Source: Candidatus Vogelbacteria bacterium
GTDB lineage: Bacteria > Patescibacteriota > Minisyncoccia > Phycocordibacterales > XYD1-FULL-46-19
Assembly (NCBI GenBank): GCA_903864935.1
Contig: CAIPHT010000005.1
Span: 9,867-73,866, forward strand
Direction of reading: 5' to 3'
Length of the DNA stretch: 64,000 nt
Shown here: piece after piece, positions 4,636 through 59,644 of the stretch
How positions within the stretch are numbered: position 1 is the first letter of the stretch
Layout of the letters: every line of letters starts with the position of its first letter
Notes under the pieces: model-generated
Database searches by the model: none
Told to the model about the DNA's origin: nothing
Seen by the model: only the letters and a program-made list of their open reading frames with translations
Made by a program: the position numbers and the translations under genes

Positions 4636-4825
4636 CGGAGTGTAGTGTAACGGTAACATCCACGACGCGCCCCCACACCTTTTTAACGGGGCATAGTGTA
4701 ACGGTAACATCCACGATTCGGGTTCGTGGGACTCTGGGTTCGAGTCCCAGTGCCCCGACAGGAACGTAAAAAAGGTGTGGGGGTGAAGGTTCGTGGGACT
4801 CAGGGTTCGAATCCCTGCACTCCGA
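4636..4825 (+). tRNA. tRNA-Pro-like gene whose anticodon loop holds a 125-nt insertion (4666-4790) containing a complete tRNA-Pro(CGG)
   Basis: 5' part CGGAGTG-TA-GTGTAACGGTAACATC-CCACGA (4636-4665) and 3' part TCGTGG-GACT-CAGGGTTCGAATCCCTG-CACTCCG-A (4791-4825). Acceptor is perfectly complementary and the D-arm is identical to the nested tRNA. The insert has 10-bp perfect inverted repeats CCCCCACACC (4670-4679) and GGTGTGGGGG (4774-4783). Uncertain whether functional, spliced or a pseudo-tRNA. Confidence 0.5.
4687..4758 (+). tRNA. tRNA-Pro(CGG), nested inside the outer tRNA-Pro-like gene
   Basis: Acceptor CGGGGCA/TGCCCCG, anticodon stem CCACGA/TCGTGG, loop TTCGGGT (anticodon CGG), T-arm CTGGG-TTCGAGT-CCCAG, discriminator A. 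Confidence 0.8.
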
Positions 4826-4840
4826 CAAAGCGAAGCATTT

Positions 4841-6386: not shown

Positions 6387-7259
6387 ATGTTAACGCAAAT
6401 CCAAAAAGAATTAAGAAAAGTGGCCGACAAAGACAAGGCAAAAATTTTGGCGCGGTTTTTCAAAACTGGGAAAGGCGAGTATGGTGAGGGTGATAAATTC
6501 TTAGGGGTGGTGGTGCCGGAGCAAAGACGGATTGCAAAAGAATATTTGCGAGACGAGAACGTTGTGAGAAGTCGTTTTTCAAGTGAGCCCGAAATGCGAC
6601 TTCGCACAATGTTCGCTGACCTTCAAAATCTTTTGCGAAGCGAGTATCACGAAGACAGGTTAACCGCCCTTTTGGTTTTAGTGGAGCTGTATCGACTTAC
6701 TCAAAAAAATGACCCTACTTCGCCGAGGCTTCGCAGGGTTAATTCGCGCAAGATTTTTTTGTTTTACATAAAAAATCTTGCGCGAACTTGCCCCGTGAGA
6801 GCGAAGCGATTTTACGGGGTTAACAATTGGGACTTAGTAGATTTAAGTGCCCCTAATATTGTCGGCGATTATCTGTTTACCCTGAGTGAAGTCGAAGGGT
6901 TGAATAATTTTTCTAAAATTCAAATAAAAACATTTTTGCTTAAATTAGCTAAGTCAAAAAATCTTTGGTCGCGTCGGGTGGCGGTGCTTGCCACCTTCCC
7001 CTTTATCAAAAATAAAAAGTTCGAAGAAATTTTAGAGTTGACCAAGTTCTTACTTTTCGAACAAAAAGAAAATCATGACCTAATGCACAAGGCTCTTGGT
7101 TGGGCGCTCCGCGAAGTGGGGAAGAGGGAGTTGGGAGTTTTGAGGAACTTCCTTGATCACTATGCGGGAGTCTTGCCTCGGACCACTCTTCGTTACTCAA
7201 TTGAGAGATTGCCTCAAAAGGAGAGGCTCGAGTATCTAGCTAGGCCCAAAATCGCTTGA
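6387..7259 (+). CDS. DNA alkylation repair protein (AlkD-like HEAT-repeat glycosylase family) carrying in-frame palindromic inserts
   Basis: N-terminus MLTQIQKELRKVADKDKAKILARFFKTGKGEYGEGDKFLGVVVPEQRRIAKEY and later ...NNWDLVD..., ...LWSRRVAVLA... are typical of the DNA_alkylation repair family. Extra segments VRSRFSSEPEMRLRT and DPTSPRLRRVNSRK.../...ARTCPVRAKRFYGV coincide with DNA palindromes. Confidence 0.7.
   Translation: MLTQIQKELRKVADKDKAKILARFFKTGKGEYGEGDKFLGVVVPEQRRIAKEYLRDENVVRSRFSSEPEMRLRTMFADLQNLLRSEYHEDRLTALLVLVELYRLTQKNDPTSPRLRRVNSRKIFLFYIKNLARTCPVRAKRFYGVNNWDLVDLSAPNIVGDYLFTLSEVEGLNNFSKIQIKTFLLKLAKSKNLWSRRVAVLATFPFIKNKKFEEILELTKFLLFEQKENHDLMHKALGWALREVGKRELGVLRNFLDHYAGVLPRTTLRYSIERLPQKERLEYLARPKIA
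6564..6607. repeat. 44-nt palindromic element GTGAGAAGTCGTTTTTCAAGTGAGCCCGAAATGCGACTTCGCAC inserted in-frame in the AlkD-like CDS
   Basis: Nucleotide-identical to 45454-45497 inside comEC. Imperfect hairpin (11-bp outer stem plus inner TTTC/GAAA). Encodes VRSRFSSEPEMRLRT in both hosts. Confidence 0.8.
6716..6820. repeat. composite nested palindrome inside the AlkD-like CDS (17-bp perfect stem TTCGCGCAAGATTTTTT/AAAAAATCTTGCGCGAA plus outer CTTCGC..GCGAAG arms)
   Basis: Read directly from the sequence. It stays in-frame (...NDPTSPRLRRVNSRKIFLFYIKNLARTCPVRAKRFYGV...). Confidence 0.6.
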
Positions 7260-23617: not shown

Positions 23618-24718
23618 TTACTTTAATCCTTCAAGAAATTCAAAAACTTTTTCGTTTACAATTAGACCGGCGGCGTAGGAGCGAAGGCGGTCTTCGGGGA
23701 CATCTTTATATTGATTCTTGAGATAATCTACTTCGTTCTTTAATTCATCTTCAGGTGCAGTGATTCCTTCTAAGTGGGCGATCTCGTTTAAGATGAGACC
23801 GAAGGCGACACGCTCACGGGCTTGCTTCTCCCAGGAGTCGCGCAATTCCTCACGAGTTTTCTTAAGATGAGTGAGATAATCTTCGAAGTCCATACCCATA
23901 TAGCCAATTTGCCCTTCCATCTCGGCCAGCATCTTGTCTTTCTCGTTCTCGATGAAGACTTTCGCCATCTTGATCTCAGACTTGGCAATCACGCCCTCGA
24001 TAATCCCAACTCGTCTCTTGTCCTTGGCTTTATTAGCCTTCTCGAGAGCCAGATTTTCTTTAATTTTGGCTTTTAGCTCATCAAGAGTCTCAAATTGGCC
24101 GAGACTTTTGGCAAAATCATCATTAAGCTCGATTTCATGTCCCGCTTCCGCAGAATGCTCCGGCGAGGCGAGGTCACATTTCTCGCCCTCTTTGTGCTCG
24201 TGGTGGCTATGCTCGGCGCTCGAACGGCTTTTGCGTAATTCTTCGAGGACGTTGGTAATTTCTTCTTCTTTGACGGCCAAAGGCGAGTCCTCAAGTGAGC
24301 CCGAGGTCTCTCCTTGGGTCGTCACGGTGTTCTTGGCAATCGCTTTATAATCCCCAATTTTTACCTCCGGCATAATAGCGGTATTGATCTTGAAGCCGAG
24401 CGGGTTGCCGGGAGCGAGCTTGGTAATAGTAATCTCGGGGCGGCCAAGCGCCATAATTTTATTGTCGGTAATTATCTGCAAGTACATCTCGGAGATTGCC
24501 TGCTGAGCCATTTCCCAGAGAATTTTTTCTTCACCCAACTTCTCAACAAGAACGTTCTCGGGGATGTGGCCAGGGCGGAAGCCGTCTAACTTAGCATCTT
24601 GGCCCAGAGTTTTGAGGGCTTTCTCTCGATAGGGGGCAAATTCGGTGACGGCTAATTCGCCAGTGATTTCGAGTTCACCTTCTTCAGCCGGATTTATTTT
24701 AAGATCGGTAATTGTCAT
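23618..24718 (-). CDS. tig: trigger factor (short form, 366 aa)
   Basis: N-terminal ribosome-binding domain with the GFRPGHIP signature (cf. GFRKGKVP), followed by a PPIase-like and C-terminal helical region. Near clpP, as in the conserved tig-clpP neighbourhood. Confidence 0.7.
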   Translation of the reverse strand: MTITDLKINPAEEGELEITGELAVTEFAPYREKALKTLGQDAKLDGFRPGHIPENVLVEKLGEEKILWEMAQQAISEMYLQIITDNKIMALGRPEITITKLAPGNPLGFKINTAIMPEVKIGDYKAIAKNTVTTQGETSGSLEDSPLAVKEEEITNVLEELRKSRSSAEHSHHEHKEGEKCDLASPEHSAEAGHEIELNDDFAKSLGQFETLDELKAKIKENLALEKANKAKDKRRVGIIEGVIAKSEIKMAKVFIENEKDKMLAEMEGQIGYMGMDFEDYLTHLKKTREELRDSWEKQARERVAFGLILNEIAHLEGITAPEDELKNEVDYLKNQYKDVPEDRLRSYAAGLIVNEKVFEFLEGLK

Positions 24719-24726
24719 AGACTATA

Positions 24727-35132: not shown

Positions 35133-35175
35133 CATATATGGTAACATTTTTTACAATTGTAAAAAATGTTACCAA
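35133..35175. promoter_or_regulatory. 36-bp perfect palindrome TGGTAACATTTTTTACAATTGTAAAAAATGTTACCA (copy 1, downstream of the PaaX-like gene)
   Basis: Perfect dyad symmetry. A second copy at 35737-35774 differs by a single centre base. Confidence 0.6.
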
Positions 35176-35713: not shown

Positions 35714-35736
35714 TATTATTATCTATTTTAACAAAT

Positions 35737-35774
35737 GGTAACATTTTTTACAATCGTAAAAAATGTTACCAGAA
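35737..35774. promoter_or_regulatory. 36-bp palindrome copy 2 in the divergent intergenic region between the PaaX-like gene and tpiA (putative operator)
   Basis: GGTAACATTTTTTACAATCGTAAAAAATGTTACC, 60 nt upstream of the tpiA ATG. Confidence 0.55.
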
Positions 35775-39236: not shown

Positions 39237-39807
39237 TCTTTAAAATAATTTTTTTAGAATTACAAAGCCGCCAGAGGTCCTAAGACATGGCGGCAAACGG
39301 GGCCCCTCGAGGGGGCAAAAGCAGTGAGCAACGAAATCCAGACGCATGAACTTCGTTGCCTAATCTAAATAAAAATTGAAAGTTAGGGCACTTTCGTGGC
39401 GTCGTCCGTGGGCCTACTACTCCGAGCGATTCGGAGTGCAACTACGCGAGCTCTCGCAGTTGCTACGGCCTTTCTTTATTTATAGAACAGAGAAGATTGC
39501 TGGGGTGGTCTCATCGCTAACTCGCAATTGGGCGAGCGAGGGGTCAGCAAACTTCTTAGAGGAGCATCTAAGTTAAGTATATCATAACCACAAAATTTGT
39601 CAAGGATAAAAATAGAAACCGCCAGGTCTCGCAATGCGGTGGGACCCCAAGGGGGTGGTCGCGTTACGAAAAACTGGCGGCGGTAGCCGGTGGCATCCGG
39701 CCACGCGGGGAGCATTCAGATAGAGCTTGGGCCCCAATGCCCTTCTTTGTGGCATCCCTCTGCCCTTTAGTGTGTCATAACTTCAAAATTCGTCAAGTAT
39801 AAAAACA

Positions 39808-39843
39808 CCGCCCAGGTTTCGGACTCACTTGAGGCCTGGGCGG
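39808..39843. repeat. GC-rich hairpin of the CCGCCCAGG...CCTGGGCGG family (3' of the HIT gene)
   Basis: CCGCCCAGGTTTCGGACTCACTTGAGGCCTGGGCGG. Related copies at 48441-48476, 54947-54986 and 59543-59580. Confidence 0.6.
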
Positions 39844-39859
39844 GGAGAGGAGAAATGGC

Positions 39860-40276
39860 TTAAATTAAAGATTTTTTGATAGCTTCTTGAGTCTCGGCAA
39901 AATCTTCTTTGGTATAGCCACCTTGGCCATGCCAATGGATGAAACCGTCGCCGTCGAAGCGGGGGATGAGGTGTACATGGGAGTGGAAGACGAGTTGGCC
40001 GGCAGCCGGTTCGTTATTCCAACCAATATTTAAGCCATCGGCTTTGGTTCCGTCTTTGATTGCTCTGGCCAGTTTTTGTAAGACTGGGCCTAGTTTGATG
40101 AGAAGTTCTGCGGGTAGGTCGAAGAGGTTGCGGTGGTGTGCCTTAGGTAAGAGCAAGGTGTGGCCAAGATTAACAGGGTTGATATCGAGAACGGCCAGCC
40201 AGTCGTTATCCTCATAAACTTTGTCAGCCGGGATATCGCCGGCGATAATTTTGCAAAAAATACAGTCTGTTTCCAT
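39860..40276 (-). CDS. HIT-family (histidine triad) nucleotide hydrolase
   Basis: GHTLLLPKAHH...HSHVHLIPR: an HxHxHxx histidine triad with the N-terminal CIFCKII motif. Confidence 0.85.
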   Translation of the reverse strand: METDCIFCKIIAGDIPADKVYEDNDWLAVLDINPVNLGHTLLLPKAHHRNLFDLPAELLIKLGPVLQKLARAIKDGTKADGLNIGWNNEPAAGQLVFHSHVHLIPRFDGDGFIHWHGQGGYTKEDFAETQEAIKKSLI

Positions 40277-45093: not shown

Positions 45094-46641
45094 ATGAGCA
45101 TGGCTAATTTGAGAAAAAATTTAGCCCTGCTCATATTTGGTTTTTTGAGCGGTGTCACCTTGGGTGGTCTTATCTCTTGGGCTTTGCCGTGGGTGGGGCT
45201 ATTTTTGGTTCTCGCTCTGGCTTTCTCGGCCCTGTTTCTCAAACTTAAGCGCCAAAAGCTTTTTTTAGCTCTCGCCATAATTTTTGTTGGAGTGATTCTC
45301 GGCCTGATTAGATTTAACTTTAGCCAAAAAACTGACCAAGCTTTGCCCGATTGCTCATCTTCGTCTAGGCCTTGCCTAGCCATGGTTGTCGCTGACCCAG
45401 ACCGGCGAGATGCTTCAACGAGGTTGGTGATTGAGCTTATGGAGTCCGAGTTTGTGAGAAGTCGTTTTTCAAGTGAGCCCGAAATGCGACTTCGCACGAA
45501 CTCGAGAGTTCTAGCTATTATTGACAACTTCACCGACTACTCTTACGGCGACAAAGTGGAGCTCGTTGGTAAAGTAGAAAAGCCTCAGAACTTTTTGACT
45601 GAACAAAACACCGTCTTCGATTATCAAAATTATTTATTAGTCCGCGGCATAGAACAAACAGTTTATCAGCCCAAACTTAAAATCATTTCTCGGGGTAACG
45701 GTTCTACTGTTAAGGCTGGTCTCTATTCTTTAAAAAATAATTTCTTAGGCAATCTTCGTCGTACTTTGCCCGAGCCGGCTGCCTCGTTAGCTGGCGGTCT
45801 CATCTTGGGGGACAAGGGCGGCTTAGGTAAGAAGACTGAAGATGAGTTTAGGCAAGCCGGGGTCTCGCACATTATTGTCCTCTCTGGCTATAACATTACG
45901 ATTGTGGCCGAGAGTGTGCTCTATTTCTTCGCTTGGCTCACACCGGCTTTCTCCTGGCTCCTTTCTATTGGTTCAATCTTTCTTTTTGTCCTGATGACCG
46001 GTGGCGAAGCTGCGGCCGTGCGCTCGGCGGTGATGGGCGCCATCGCGCTCATAGCAAGGCGTTATGGTCGCACCTATGATGCGGGAGTGGCCTTAATTGT
46101 TGCCGGCTTCTTGATGATAGTTTGGAATCCAAGGCTTCTCGCCTTCGACCTCGGCTTTCAACTCTCCTTCCTCGCCACATTGGGTTTGATATATTTGTCA
46201 CCCGTGGTGGAGAAGCTTTTGGATATCGGTTCGGGATTTCTGCGAAGTCGCATCTGGCTACGCGAGAAACGACTTCTCAAAAATCCCGAGCTTTTGAGAA
46301 GTTGGACTTCAAGAGAGCCCGAAGTCCAACTTCGCGGAAGCGGGGAGAAAAAGTTTAACAAGGATGTTTGGTCCGGTCTCAAAGAGCTCATCTGCACCAC
46401 CACCGGCGCCCAACTCGCCGTCTACCCTTGGCTCCTCTATAAAATGGGCAACGCTTCGCTCGTTGGTTTCATCTCCAACATCTTCATTCTCCCACCTATT
46501 CCCATTGCCATGTTCTTAAGTTTCTTAACGGGTATTACTGGTTTTATTTCCTCCTTCCTATCTCTTCTCATCAGTTATCCTACTTATTTCCTCCTCGCTT
46601 ATATCCTCAAAATGGCTCATATCTTTGCGAGTTTGTTATAA
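45094..46641 (+). CDS. comEC: ComEC/Rec2 competence protein, membrane channel part (DUF4131 + Competence domain), with in-frame palindromic inserts
   Basis: Multi-TM with IIVLSGYNITIVAES (competence domain signature). Contains the 44-nt palindrome at 45454-45497 and a related one at 46297-46335. Confidence 0.8.
   Translation: MSMANLRKNLALLIFGFLSGVTLGGLISWALPWVGLFLVLALAFSALFLKLKRQKLFLALAIIFVGVILGLIRFNFSQKTDQALPDCSSSSRPCLAMVVADPDRRDASTRLVIELMESEFVRSRFSSEPEMRLRTNSRVLAIIDNFTDYSYGDKVELVGKVEKPQNFLTEQNTVFDYQNYLLVRGIEQTVYQPKLKIISRGNGSTVKAGLYSLKNNFLGNLRRTLPEPAASLAGGLILGDKGGLGKKTEDEFRQAGVSHIIVLSGYNITIVAESVLYFFAWLTPAFSWLLSIGSIFLFVLMTGGEAAAVRSAVMGAIALIARRYGRTYDAGVALIVAGFLMIVWNPRLLAFDLGFQLSFLATLGLIYLSPVVEKLLDIGSGFLRSRIWLREKRLLKNPELLRSWTSREPEVQLRGSGEKKFNKDVWSGLKELICTTTGAQLAVYPWLLYKMGNASLVGFISNIFILPPIPIAMFLSFLTGITGFISSFLSLLISYPTYFLLAYILKMAHIFASLL
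45454..45497. repeat. 44-nt palindromic element, identical to 6564-6607, in-frame inside comEC
   Basis: Exact 44/44 nt identity. Encodes VRSRFSSEPEMRLRT in the same frame as in the AlkD-like gene. Flanks form extra complementary arms (CGAGTT / AACTCG). Confidence 0.8.
46297..46335. repeat. diverged member of the same palindromic element family inside comEC (GAGAAGTTGGACTTCAAGAGAGCCCGAAGTCCAACTTCGC)
   Basis: Shares the GAGAAGT...TTCAAG.GAGCCCGAA...ACTTCGC framework, with a compensatory inner stem TGGACTTC/GAAGTCCA. Confidence 0.6.
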
Positions 46642-46649
46642 TCAGAACA

Positions 46650-47504
46650 ATGAAATATCGCTGGGGCTTTATTTTTTTACTTTTAATTTTTACCGTCACT
46701 ACTTGGCTGGCGGTTTGGTATGAGACGCCGAGTAAGTATTTAACAGTAGACTTTCTTGATGTCGGCCAAGGCGATGCCATCTTAATCACGGCGCCCAACG
46801 GCAACCAAGTTTTGATTGATGGGGGTCCAGACCGGAGTGTGATACGCGCCCTTGGTCAAGCCATGCCCTTCTTTGATCACTCCATTGATCTTGTTTTAGA
46901 ATCTCATCCCGACCAAGACCATATTGGTGGTTTGCCCGAAGTCTTTGATCGTTATAATGTGGCTGGTTTTATTGAGCCACTCTTCACGGCCGAGACTTCT
47001 GTCTATAAAACTCTTGAGCAAGATGTAATAAAAGAAAAATCTTCGCACCTGATTGCAAAAAGGGGAACAAAAATTACTCTAAGCCCTGGCGTCTATCTCA
47101 GTATTATCGAAGCCCATCCTGCCACTTGGGGTCCGAGGGGAGGGAAGCCGGATTCTAATTATAGTTCGATTATTGCCAAGCTCACTTATGCCTCCACCTC
47201 CTTCCTCTTCATGGGTGATGCGTCTATTAAATTAGAGAATCAATTACTAACAGCTAAAAGCTCTGACCTAAAAGCTACGGTGCTAAAAGTTGCCCACCAT
47301 GGCGCGAAGAGCTCTAATTCCCTAGCTTTCTTCAGGGCGGTTAAACCAGAGCTGGCGATAATCTCTGTTGCGGAGAAGAACCGCTATAACCACCCAAGCC
47401 CCGAGACTATCGGTTGGCTAAAAATGGCCGGCATCCAAACTCTCCAAACCAAGGACCTCGGCACCATCAAACTAAAATCCGACGGTATTAGTGTCGGATT
47501 TTAG
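46650..47504 (+). CDS. ComEC C-terminal metallo-beta-lactamase domain encoded as a separate ORF with its own N-terminal TM helix
   Basis: HPDQDHIGG and VAHHGAKSS motifs (MBL fold); begins 9 nt after the comEC stop. Confidence 0.78.
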   Translation: MKYRWGFIFLLLIFTVTTWLAVWYETPSKYLTVDFLDVGQGDAILITAPNGNQVLIDGGPDRSVIRALGQAMPFFDHSIDLVLESHPDQDHIGGLPEVFDRYNVAGFIEPLFTAETSVYKTLEQDVIKEKSSHLIAKRGTKITLSPGVYLSIIEAHPATWGPRGGKPDSNYSSIIAKLTYASTSFLFMGDASIKLENQLLTAKSSDLKATVLKVAHHGAKSSNSLAFFRAVKPELAIISVAEKNRYNHPSPETIGWLKMAGIQTLQTKDLGTIKLKSDGISVGF

Positions 47505-48440: not shown

Positions 48441-48476
48441 CCCGCCAGGCCTCGGGCTCACTTGAGGCCTGGCGGG
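48441..48476. repeat. GC-rich hairpin of the CCGCCAGG...CCTGGCGG family (terminator for the S2P gene)
   Basis: CCCGCCAGGCCTCGGGCTCACTTGAGGCCTGGCGGG. Confidence 0.6.
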
Positions 48477-48499: not shown

Positions 48500-48528
48500 T
48501 TGACAGAAATAACCTGTTATGCTATACT
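48500..48528 (+). promoter_or_regulatory. extended -10 sigma70 promoter TTGACA-N17(..TGC)-TATACT
   Basis: TTGACA 48500-48505, TATACT 48523-48528 preceded by TGC. An RBS AAGGAG and the ATG at 48601 follow. Confidence 0.6.
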
Positions 48529-48600
48529 AGACGTTAGGTAAGGTAATATTTGGTGTTCTCTACAAAAGGCCTTTTGGCCAGAAAATAAGGAGATAGAGTC

Positions 48601-48888
48601 ATGAGCCGAGAGGAGCAATTTGCTCAGATTTTGGAACGTGTGTGTGGTCGCAACATCGGTTGCCTTGTCTGCTATGCGGGTAGCCACGGAAACTGGTTGG
48701 TGGAACTCCAAGACGCGCTTGAAGACATGGGCGTGTCGGTAGAGGAGTTCGCCTCGACCCGCAGCGACCAAGCAGGAATTTTGTTCACTGTCACTCGGGG
48801 CCGCCTCAGGTTGCTTCACCCCGGCCAGTGCGTCGACTCCAAGGCGATCATGAGCATTTTTCTCCGGCTCGAGAAGGCAGAGGATTAG
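48601..48888 (+). CDS. small hypothetical protein (95 aa), GC-richer, inserted just upstream of rpsL
   Basis: Own promoter, RBS and terminator (48896-48936). No domain recognised. Confidence 0.45.
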   Translation: MSREEQFAQILERVCGRNIGCLVCYAGSHGNWLVELQDALEDMGVSVEEFASTRSDQAGILFTVTRGRLRLLHPGQCVDSKAIMSIFLRLEKAED

Positions 48889-49015
48889 GCTCAAACACCG
48901 CCCACAACGGAAAACCGTTGGAGGGCGGTTTTCTTTTTGCCCAAACAGTTGCATTTTCTAAGCATTTATATTAAAGTAGTGCTTACCTGGCCGAGAGGTC
49001 ATTTTTATTGTATTT

Positions 49016-54946: not shown

Positions 54947-54986
54947 CCCCGCCCAGGTCTCGGGCGACCTTGAGGCCTGGGCGGGG
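54947..54986. repeat. GC-rich hairpin CCCCGCCCAGGTCTCGGGCGACCTTGAGGCCTGGGCGGGG between divergent promoters
   Basis: Same family as 39808, 48441 and 59543. Confidence 0.6.
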
Positions 54987-59511: not shown

Positions 59512-59542
59512 AGTATTGAGATTGTCCTGAAATTAAGAAAAC

Positions 59543-59580
59543 CGCCCAGACCTCTAGTTTCCCGAGGTCTGGGCGGTTTT
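59543..59580 (+). terminator. intrinsic terminator of the CCGCCCAG hairpin family (CCGCCCAGACCTC...GAGGTCTGGGCGG + TTTT)
   Basis: 13-bp stem plus a T-tract after the surface-protein gene. Confidence 0.65.
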
Positions 59581-59616
59581 TGCTTGCCCCGTGGGGGTGA
59601 AGTCCCTCTACGGGGT

Positions 59617-59644
59617 TTGACATTATCCCCAATTTTGCTATGCT
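59617..59644 (+). promoter_or_regulatory. promoter TTGACA-N16(..TGC)-TATGCT re-starting transcription for rpsS...rplE, followed by a leader hairpin GTCCGCC-gact-GGCGGAC
   Basis: Hexamers at 59617-59622 and 59639-59644, with about 100 nt of structured leader before the rpsS ATG. Confidence 0.5.

Follow-up and report, generated by a model that had tools for sequence, protein, structure and literature searches.

Small translated hairpin repeats of Candidatus Paceibacterota: old residents of housekeeping genes whose sequences are probably homogenized between copies

The stretch of DNA analyzed here, 64,000 nucleotides of contig CAIPHT010000005.1 from a Candidatus Vogelbacteria bacterium (hereafter, the window), carries the same 44-nt palindromic sequence, GTGAGAAGTCGTTTTTCAAGTGAGCCCGAAATGCGACTTCGCAC, inside two unrelated genes, one encoding an AlkD-like DNA alkylation repair protein and the other encoding ComEC. 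Protein names place the source organism in Candidatus Paceibacterota (Patescibacteria). Judged from the sequences of the window and its relatives, small palindromic repeats form a family specific to this lineage, and the 44-mer is the core sequence of one of its isomers. We consider it probable that the members of this family are old residents of their sites, that they are translated where they lie in genes, that they have been homogenized between copies, and that their outer arms have been extended at the DNA level. A preliminary description of the window had regarded the pair as a recently active, selfish insert of 44 nt resembling the Rickettsia palindromic elements (RPEs). Most of what it reported about the two copies was reproduced in our analysis, whereas the recent insertion that it proposed was contradicted by the closest relatives.

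The 44-mer occurs on the plus strand at 6564-6607 and 45454-45497 without a mismatch (44/44), and the identity extends to 46/46 once two T residues at the 5′ end are counted (6562-6607 and 45452-45497); none of 100 dinucleotide-preserving shuffles contained a match to it. In the AlkD-like gene (6387-7259, plus strand; PF08713, DNA_alkylation, E value of 1.8e-45), it forms the center of a 58-nt plus-strand hairpin at 6557-6614 with the outer arms GAACGTT/AATGTTC, and the copy is laid out as a GTGA tag, arm X (GAAGTCGTTTTTC), loop L1 (AAGTGAGCCC), arm Y (GAAATGCGACTTC), and a GCAC tag. In comEC (45094-46641, plus strand; PF13567 and PF03772), which holds three members of the family, the first copy is a 58-nt plus-strand hairpin at 45447-45504 with the outer arms CGAGTTT/GAACTCG, so that the flanks do differ between the two genes while remaining complementary within each. 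Both hairpins have a 24-position stem and a 10-nt loop. Folded as single-stranded DNA, they reached free energies (dG) of −16.8 kcal/mol (z score of −6.25) for AlkD and −17.6 kcal/mol (z score of about −6.3) for ComEC, and 0 of 200 shuffles were equally stable. Both copies lie in long plus-strand open reading frames (ORFs) and are read in the same frame, as VRSRFSSEPEMRLRT, in agreement with the in-frame placement and shared peptide described previously.

Since 44 is not divisible by 3, the 44-mer cannot by itself be the inserted unit. Relative to insert-free orthologs, the net extra length is 51 nt (+17 amino acids) in ComEC and 48 to 54 nt in AlkD; the dispersed palindromic repeat seen earlier is real, and its equation with a complete 44-nt insert is not. 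The AlkD-like protein has 271 residues over a 213-position profile because it contains several in-frame hairpin inserts. In its AlphaFold model (predicted local distance difference test score [pLDDT] of 85.9), the insert is a low-pLDDT loop between helices (residues 57 to 67), and the remaining low-confidence stretches match other small inserts; as far as a predicted structure can tell, the element appears to be tolerated in a protein loop, as had been suggested. Two inserts of other hairpin families were also noted in low-pLDDT AlkD loops: TCPVRAKRFYG (6787-6821), which is 77% similar to an intergenic copy at 59583-59617 and occurs in P0004 as well, and DPTSPRLRRV (~6700-6740), which is common to P0003 and P0005 (labels of this kind, with P or L, are our own for related sequences).

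A wider search with the 44-mer and with a degenerate pattern recovered a family rather than a pair. The pattern, with 21 specified bases, gave 48 matches in 47 metagenome contigs versus ~0.5 expected, and L1-loop hairpins amounted to 76 distinct sequences across the window, close Paceibacterota relatives, and metagenome contigs. The identical 44-mer core was present at at least 11 sites in several genomes, at least 9 of them beyond AlkD and ComEC, in related metagenome contigs. Hairpins with the loop motif are frequent in the syntenic relatives L083, L084, and L132 to L134, and the window contains 8 related hairpins in 64 kb (~1 per 8 kb). A scan with the AlkD protein gave homologs of at most 47% identity, dominated by the word EYGEGDKF, which served as negative controls; 1.2 Mb of distant control loci yielded one weak hit.

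The canonical member consists of a GTGA tag, a 13-nt arm, the conserved 10-nt loop AAGTGAGCCC, a complementary arm, and a GCAC tag, with a core of 41 to 44 nt, a whole hairpin of 46 to 60 nt, and a net insert of 12 to 18 amino acids. A canonical 22-nt core, GACYTC-AAGTGAGCCC-GARGTC, is common to the stem subfamilies, which include A (GAAGTC-S-GACTTC, with tags GTGA/GCAC), B (CCCGCCAGACCTC), C (GAGGTGAGTCCTC/GAGGTCTCTCCTC), and others. The 44-mer of the window departs from this core (TTTTTC...GAAATG) and is a derived isomer. The loop is the best-conserved part across subfamilies that have no stem sequence in common. The stems covary, with 77.8% of cells paired versus 59% in shuffles and 34 to 44% in slid registers; double-change cells numbered 420 versus 172 expected, a count reached by 0 of 500 shuffles, and one mismatch is conserved. 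Searching Rfam 15 gave no family match and only tRNAs in the window, the single hairpin hit of a permissive scan scoring 23.6 bits against a gathering score of 70. Neither the canonical core nor the 36-nt core of the AlkD/ComEC variant was found in viral contigs, which gave no sign of a phage vector.

The remaining six hairpins of the window illustrate the range of the family. Within comEC, copy 2a (46231-46289; 41-nt core at 46240-46280) runs antisense to the gene (minus strand), and its X/Y arms are the same but enclose a sister loop, L2 (GCGTAGCC); it reads LRSRIWLREKRLL and is enclosed by 9-bp perfect outer arms, TCGGGATTT/AAATCCCGA. Copy 2b (46290-46341, plus strand) is of the L1 type, with the inner stem TGGAC/GTCCA and the loop AAGAGAGCCC, and reads LRSWTSREPEVQLRGS (dG of −16.1; z score of −6.6). 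The copy in the trigger factor gene, tig (23618-24721, minus strand), is located at 24271-24324, directly past the Trigger_N domain, with its L1 loop on the plus strand, antisense to the gene, and a stem of the GAGGTGAGTCCTC/GAGGTCTCTCCTC type of subfamily C. Three intergenic hairpins lie on the minus strand. The one at 48441-48476 has an L1 loop on the GC-rich stem CCCGCCAGGCCTC followed by TTTTT (dG of −18) and lies just 3′ of the ORF at 48517-48954 (minus strand); the one at 39803-39848 has the L1-like loop AAGTGAGTCC on a GC-rich stem followed by TGTTTTT and lies just 3′ of the ORF at 39860-40276 (minus strand); the one at 54947-54986 combines a GC-rich stem with the variant loop AAGGTCGCCC. 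The first two directly follow minus-strand ORFs, carry a T-run, and have their L1 loop in the orientation of the transcript; the family therefore includes plausible intrinsic terminators. The AlkD and ComEC copies are not of this type, being within ORFs and lacking a T-run. The GC-rich-stem subfamily is extragenic, unlike the coding-type subfamily, about two-thirds of which is intragenic.

Counting copies by location showed that 32 of the 47 distinct pattern copies are intragenic, that is, within open frames of at least 200 amino acids with coding sequence on both sides. Relative to the gene, 17 of these are in the sense and 15 in the antisense orientation, and the frames are sense-0 (11 copies), sense-1 (5), antisense-0 (12), and antisense-1 (3). 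The two other frames, in which TGA occurs, are unused, save for one sense-2 copy with the stop-free loop variant AAGGGAG; thus, only stop-free frames are occupied. Depending on orientation and frame, the element is translated as xRSRTSSEPEVRLRx, EVxLQVSPKSDF, xRSRxSGSLEVRLLx, or EVRLRAHLKSDF, and an example of a peptide spanning it is VRSRFSSEPEMR. Recognizable Pfam families were found in 19 of 20 host ORFs tested. The hosts comprise UvrC (4 ORFs), LeuRS (3), ComEC (2), Dus (2), the DNA polymerase III delta′ subunit (2), and 2-hydroxyacid dehydrogenase (2), as well as an RNase R-like protein, LepA, enolase, RNase HII, and a methyltransferase. Pfam domains usually flank the element rather than contain it: enolase has it at amino acid 132, between the N domain (7 to 125) and the C domain (149 to 414), and LepA has it at amino acid 186, between the GTPase domain and domain 2.

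These frames bear on two further explanations. Related peptides are found at the same position in orthologs, as an ancient protein feature or a convergent peptide motif would predict; however, the same DNA yields four peptides, over 12 unrelated protein families contain it, as does intergenic DNA, and at one orthologous site (see below) 44/44 nucleotides are identical between flanks that are 76 to 78% identical. One DNA element with four peptides excludes a motif at the protein level, and we give this explanation virtually no credence; the earlier statement that the identity is not protein homology is upheld by both orientations and all four frames across unrelated genes. The second explanation is removal of the element at or ahead of expression, either through intron-like cutting by a protein endonuclease or through translational bypassing, so that its frame would not matter. 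The hairpin has exon-like flanks that pair across it, and its 44-nt core is not a multiple of 3, both of which would fit removal. Nonetheless, all 32 intragenic copies are stop-free and keep the downstream frame, frames with stops are avoided, net inserts are multiples of 3, and excision in silico gave a long ORF in just 2 of 15 nonintragenic copies. These open and preserved frames exclude an intron-like or bypassed element, and removal in any form is very improbable.

Insert-free orthologs exist for every host gene examined. At the AlkD site, P0010, P0015, and P0036 have 6 to 8 residues compared to 24 in the window, and at the ComEC site, P0126, P0127, P0134, P0137, and P0138 have 5 residues compared to 22; P0127 and P0138 were compared at the DNA level, P0126 and P0010 being the closest insert-free proteins. 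The closest relatives, however, carry members of the family at the very same sites. At ComEC site 1, where the window has tag-X-L1-Y-tag, L132 (82% protein identity) and L133 (78%) have tag-Y-L1-X-tag, and L134 (70%) has the Y-L1-X form entirely inverted; the net ComEC insert varies by lineage (+12, +17, +17, and +18 amino acids), and the ComEC genes of the window and L132 are 79.6% identical at the DNA level. At the AlkD site, L136 (67%) and L084 (57%) share the arms of the window (31/32 nt) but have loop L2, the same loop type as in ComEC copy 2a; in L083, the L2 form is turned around, and L135 lacks an element. At one and the same codon position in tig, L083 and L084 carry the element of the window turned around in full, internal mismatches included. 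A screen of syntenic indels (~20 kb, 4 to 8 genomes) revealed no clean recent gain or loss of the L1 family outside these old sites from which exact insertion boundaries could be read.

On these comparisons, the AlkD, ComEC, and tig sites are old and had been occupied by the time the sampled genomes diverged. By parsimony, the X-L1-Y form of the window is derived at both sites, old residents having been recently overwritten by the same variant. Because the sites are already occupied in the closest relatives, the 46-nt identity would reflect recent overwriting or homogenization, not the fresh insertion proposed in the preliminary description. An ancient protein feature had been said to predict the same peptide at the same position in orthologs from distant lineages, and formally this is partly so, VRSRFSRSQMRLRT being shared by L136 and L084 at the AlkD site. 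Since other orthologs hold the inverted element and hence a different peptide, this sharing represents persistence of the DNA element rather than a protein motif.

Homogenization can be judged where flanks and cores can be compared. At an orthologous Dus site, L099 and L121 carry the 44-mer, with cores that are 44/44 identical between flanks that are 76 to 78% identical; at 77% identity per site, the chance of such a core is ~1e-5. Within single genomes, one variant occupies both ComEC sites of the P0122 genome, and L084 has 32 nt in common between its tig copy and an intergenic copy lying 400 nt from it, which the orthologous pair of L083 does not show. Because loops (L1, L2, and, on B-type stems at 59538-59580, a third), arms, and orientation each vary without regard to the others, the elements are mosaics. 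Arms can also trade places around an unchanged loop, as X-L-Y versus Y-L-X, and subfamily A likewise shows GAAGTCGTACTTC on either side of the loop. Inversion, loop flip, circular permutation, and arm-to-arm conversion were each considered as the origin of this arm swap, and none reproduces the observed strings. The hairpin at 59538-59580 is itself terminator-like, with the GC-rich stem of the L1 terminator copies (CCGCCCAGACCTC) and the third loop, TAGTTTCCC, which again suggests a modular exchange of stems and loops.

The identical 44-mer core at so many sites would also be expected if a nonautonomous element had recently transposed. Such an element, akin to a miniature inverted-repeat transposable element (MITE) or to a REPIN, in which repetitive extragenic palindromic (REP) units are paired, would be mobilized in trans by, e.g., a Y1 HUH enzyme of the REP-associated tyrosine transposase (RAYT) type, perhaps at the centers of short palindromes. 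Each canonical 13-nt arm is itself a near-palindrome, as in REP doublets. Genes of the Y1_Tnp family (PF01797) with weak similarity to the NCBIfam REP-associated tyrosine transposase are present in L134 (17516-18178), L091 (8136-8789), and L133 (8590-9294); their scores are 35 to 43 bits against an NCBIfam RAYT cutoff of 80. However, each of them is bracketed on both sides by its own hairpin (GGGGGAGGTTGAGCCTCCCCC, GGGGAAGCTTAGCTTCCCC, and AATGTGAAGCACTCGGTGCTTCACATT), unrelated to L1 and essentially confined to the gene flanks, and the window has no Y1_Tnp gene. Neither the direct target-site duplications of a MITE nor, in ~0.6 Mb of related DNA from partial genomes, an autonomous insertion sequence with L1 termini was seen. 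The flanks are inverted complements of each other, and only the AlkD flank AACGTT/AATGTT, itself palindromic, can be read either way. Furthermore, both sites held other variants with homologous outer arms in the closest relatives, and the ~20-kb syntenic comparison showed no clean presence/absence polymorphism outside old sites. Altogether, we consider recent transposition unlikely. The Y1_Tnp gene of L134 is located between those for EF-G and EF-Tu.

Two observations touch on how such sites might be chosen. A second hairpin, encoding ACPQCFATQGRR, is nested in an L1 element at the stem-loop junction in both the AlkD gene of L084 (10001-10891) and the ComEC gene of P0124; its occurrence in two genes and genomes hints that hairpin apices are insertion targets. 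The empty ComEC site of L137 (codons L-D-S-S-S-N) contains a perfect 6-bp inverted repeat, TTGGAT-tcttc-ATCCAA, where relatives carry the element, and this repeat may be due to chance (~2%), a preferred palindromic target, or an excision footprint. Both are anecdotal, and both are compatible with insertion at hairpin apices.

The outer arms follow a pattern of their own. Watson-Crick pairing at flank positions 7, 8, 9, and 10 was 71, 69, 64, and 51%, respectively, compared to 26 to 28% for mismatched flank pairs, and it was at background from position 11 outward. The outer arms of four orthologs at ComEC site 1 are homologous and covary (GAGTTT/GAACTC, GAGCTT/AAGCTC, and GAGCCT/AGGCTC), which alters amino acids on both sides of the element. 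In L132, they lie within the host codons I-E-L and S-S-R, which align with I-K-L and S-N-K of L137, whose site is empty. Thus, contrary to what had been assumed, the arms are not plain host gene nucleotides: compared with empty sites, the hairpin is largely added DNA, and its remainder consists of host codons turned complementary. G·U pairs were not in excess over A×C on the mRNA strand (20 versus 17; P = 0.74), and on the element's own strand the counts were 34 versus 26. This absence of a G·U bias makes the complementarity look like a strand-symmetric, DNA-level property rather than the outcome of selection for RNA folding. Strong hairpins as such number 35 in the window versus 0 to 4 in shuffles. 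Conserved AlkD codons (NSRKIF...KNLAR) also make up a hairpin with an 18-bp stem at 6741-6788, which the window shares with L136 but not with L084, L083, or L135; this suggests that palindromes in this lineage have been created, or extended into flanks, by templated substitutions in coding sequence.

Conservation of the loop across stem subfamilies, together with retention of outer-arm pairing at orthologous sites despite amino acid changes, is also what a functional structured motif would show. Here, the hairpin with its AAGTGAGCCC loop would be recognized by a host factor acting in termination or RNA processing, DNA uptake, or nucleoid organization, and coding copies would be kept, e.g., for translational pausing at the borders of domains. 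The placement of GC-rich-stem copies exactly at gene 3′ ends, with the T-run on the L1-sense strand, and the clustering of coding copies in interdomain linkers are in line with this explanation. On the other hand, coding copies show no orientation bias (17 sense and 15 antisense), which makes a strand-specific RNA loop signal unlikely in them, and the transcribed strand has no bias of G·U over A×C. Moreover, the loop is replaceable (L1, L2, or the third loop) on the same stems at orthologous sites, insert-free orthologs were found for every host gene examined, and Rfam has no matching family. The density also differs from that of DNA uptake sequences (DUS) or uptake signal sequences (USS): these occur at ~1 per kb and arise by substitution, whereas the L1 family occurs at ~1 per 8 kb, far below them, and consists of 36- to 54-nt insertions relative to empty sites. 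We regard a recognized functional motif as quite improbable.

These data lead us back to old residents that are homogenized in place. Under this explanation, coding copies would simply be translated, surviving in stop-free frames and mostly in interdomain linkers or surface loops. Dispersed hairpins would exchange sequence by short-tract gene conversion or template switching, and each exchange would overwrite the loop, the arms, or the orientation, module by module, so that cores stay identical while host genes diverge; the AlkD and ComEC copies of the window would have become identical through such overwriting. Fold-back or template-switch copying would then extend the palindrome into its flanks, or maintain it there, and alter host codons in the process. 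The conversion or template-switch mechanism is one that we infer from mosaic patterns in ~10 partial genomes, as we do how elements first reached each site.

Quasi-palindrome template switching can create or extend hairpins in a single step, yielding apparent compensatory changes. We know of no case in which it spreads or homogenizes a dispersed repeat family. Its products would resemble three features of the L1 family: outer arms that are complementary yet specific to each site, host codons that have been reshaped, and the lack of a G·U bias. Unlike such mutagenesis, which is known to make point mutations at single loci, the L1 family is dispersed and homogenized. In the Ripley model and in Escherichia coli work from the Lovett laboratory, template switching at quasi-palindromes reportedly perfects imperfect inverted repeats at the DNA level, and Monttinen and Loytynoja (PNAS, 2022) are said to have found that template switching creates hairpins.

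Several points weigh against this explanation. Conversion or template-switch events are not seen directly, only as mosaic patterns, and the homologies between variants (7 to 16 nt) are short for conversion of the RecA type. Arm swaps with an unchanged loop cannot be derived from simple inversion or conversion. Repeated insertion at hot spots, such as the apices of short palindromes, would likewise place different variants at the same site, and the 6-bp inverted repeat at the empty ComEC site of L137 fits insertion of that kind. Finally, the source genome was sampled as 64 kb, and a cognate transposase may lie elsewhere in it. A bolder version, which we put forward only tentatively and would not favor, is that the family is a transposase-free copy-and-overwrite replicator based purely on DNA structure: replication stalling at hairpins would drive template switching, with loops, arms, and orientation overwritten, and fold-back copying, with palindromes growing into host codons, and thereby continually rewrite linker peptides of housekeeping proteins across Paceibacterota. 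In a variant of this idea, the invariant AAGTGAGCCC loop may act as a signal bound by a host factor.

Some other features of the window were recorded in passing. ComEC lacks the usual C-terminal metallo-beta-lactamase domain, which is encoded instead by a separate ORF (46650-47504) that begins 9 nt downstream; the same split arrangement is found in the relatives L132 to L134 and L138. Hairpins overlap the start codon of ComEC (45094-45134; 13 pairs) and the stop codon of the ORF with the beta-lactamase fold (47472-47504; 12 pairs, with T-rich sequence behind it), and they may have a role in regulation or termination. A 37-nt perfect palindrome, ATGGTAACATTTTTTACAAT[T/C]GTAAAAAATGTTACCA, occurs twice in intergenic DNA, at 35138-35174 and 35735-35771 (36/37 identical, 597 bp apart), and the two may represent a pair of operators or recombination sites on either side of a small segment. 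At 4788-4827, 28 nt downstream of tRNA-Pro(CGG) (4687-4759), the 3′ half of that tRNA is repeated over 40 nt with 85% identity, as if an integrative element had left behind an att-site duplication; the adjacent region from 4.8 to 5.6 kb has only overlapping, odd ORFs.

Known palindromic repeats offer partial parallels. RPEs (Ogata et al., 2000/2002, via PMC3733652) are palindromic and dispersed, lying both in intergenic DNA and, in frame, in many unrelated functional genes, which often have housekeeping roles. They are translated as hydrophilic peptides in loops or at the surface, belong to a reduced-genome, host-dependent lineage, have no identified transposase, and measure ~100 to 150 bp (30 to 50 amino acids) with a CGTC tag at one end. 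The L1 family is likewise palindromic, dispersed, in frame in functional ORFs, and translated. It differs in size (44 to 58 nt; 12 to 18 amino acids), in having no sequence similarity to RPEs, in its GTGA...GCAC ends without CGTC, in its conserved loop, in the modular exchange at orthologous sites, in cores that stay identical between genomes with flanks of just 76 to 78% identity, and in its occurrence in Patescibacteria. The comparison with RPEs drawn at the outset thus captures how the elements work; membership in the same family fails on size, tag, and lineage.

In REP sequences, REPINs, and bacterial interspersed mosaic elements (BIMEs), inverted short imperfect palindromes pair up as one longer hairpin whose ends are conserved and whose variable middle shows compensating changes (Bertels and Rainey, 2011, PMC3116915; Di Nocera et al., 2013, PMC3733652; Messing et al., 2012, PMC3479197). 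Genomes hold several REP subfamilies, some acting as terminators, and a minority of copies lie inside ORFs, notably of replication and repair genes, in several phyla (PMC3733652); BIMEs join palindromic units with a small set of conserved linkers (PMC3116915, PMC3733652, PMC3479197). The arms of the L1 family, GAAGTC-S-GACTTC, are likewise near-palindromes in inverted orientation, with covariation. Unlike REP sequences and REPINs, however, the family has GTGA/GTGC tags (GTGC being the reverse complement of GCAC) rather than GTAG or CGTC, about two-thirds of sampled coding-type copies are intragenic rather than mainly extragenic, and no RAYT gene flanked by L1 elements was found in the window or in the partial genomes of relatives. 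Its conserved linker, unlike that of BIMEs, is the 10-nt hairpin loop. Inverted repeats with both arms translated are also described in coding sequences of Nematomorpha mitochondria; these are perfect, locus-specific, mitochondrial palindromes of up to 284 bp that have no dispersed shared core, unlike the L1 family (PMC6649704).

Full-text literature searches found no description of such elements in Patescibacteria or the Candidate Phyla Radiation (CPR), consistent with the earlier remark that they had not been characterized in this kind of genome. What is new is the L1 family for Patescibacteria; selfish palindromic elements in protein loops are already known in kind. To our knowledge, translated intragenic palindromic repeats are textbook only for Rickettsia. 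The present family is structurally different, has a similar or higher intragenic frequency, and belongs to another reduced-genome, host-dependent lineage, which suggests that translated palindromic repeats go with that lifestyle, perhaps with a reduced DNA repair repertoire. It provides material for asking how elements persist while their content is overwritten, how palindromes grow into coding sequence, and where new protein linkers come from. In practical terms, proteins become longer and more variable in length through the repeats, which can also make unrelated CPR proteins look homologous and are likely break points in metagenome assemblies. If the copy-and-overwrite replicator proves true, it may be a general source of many small insertions in CPR proteins.

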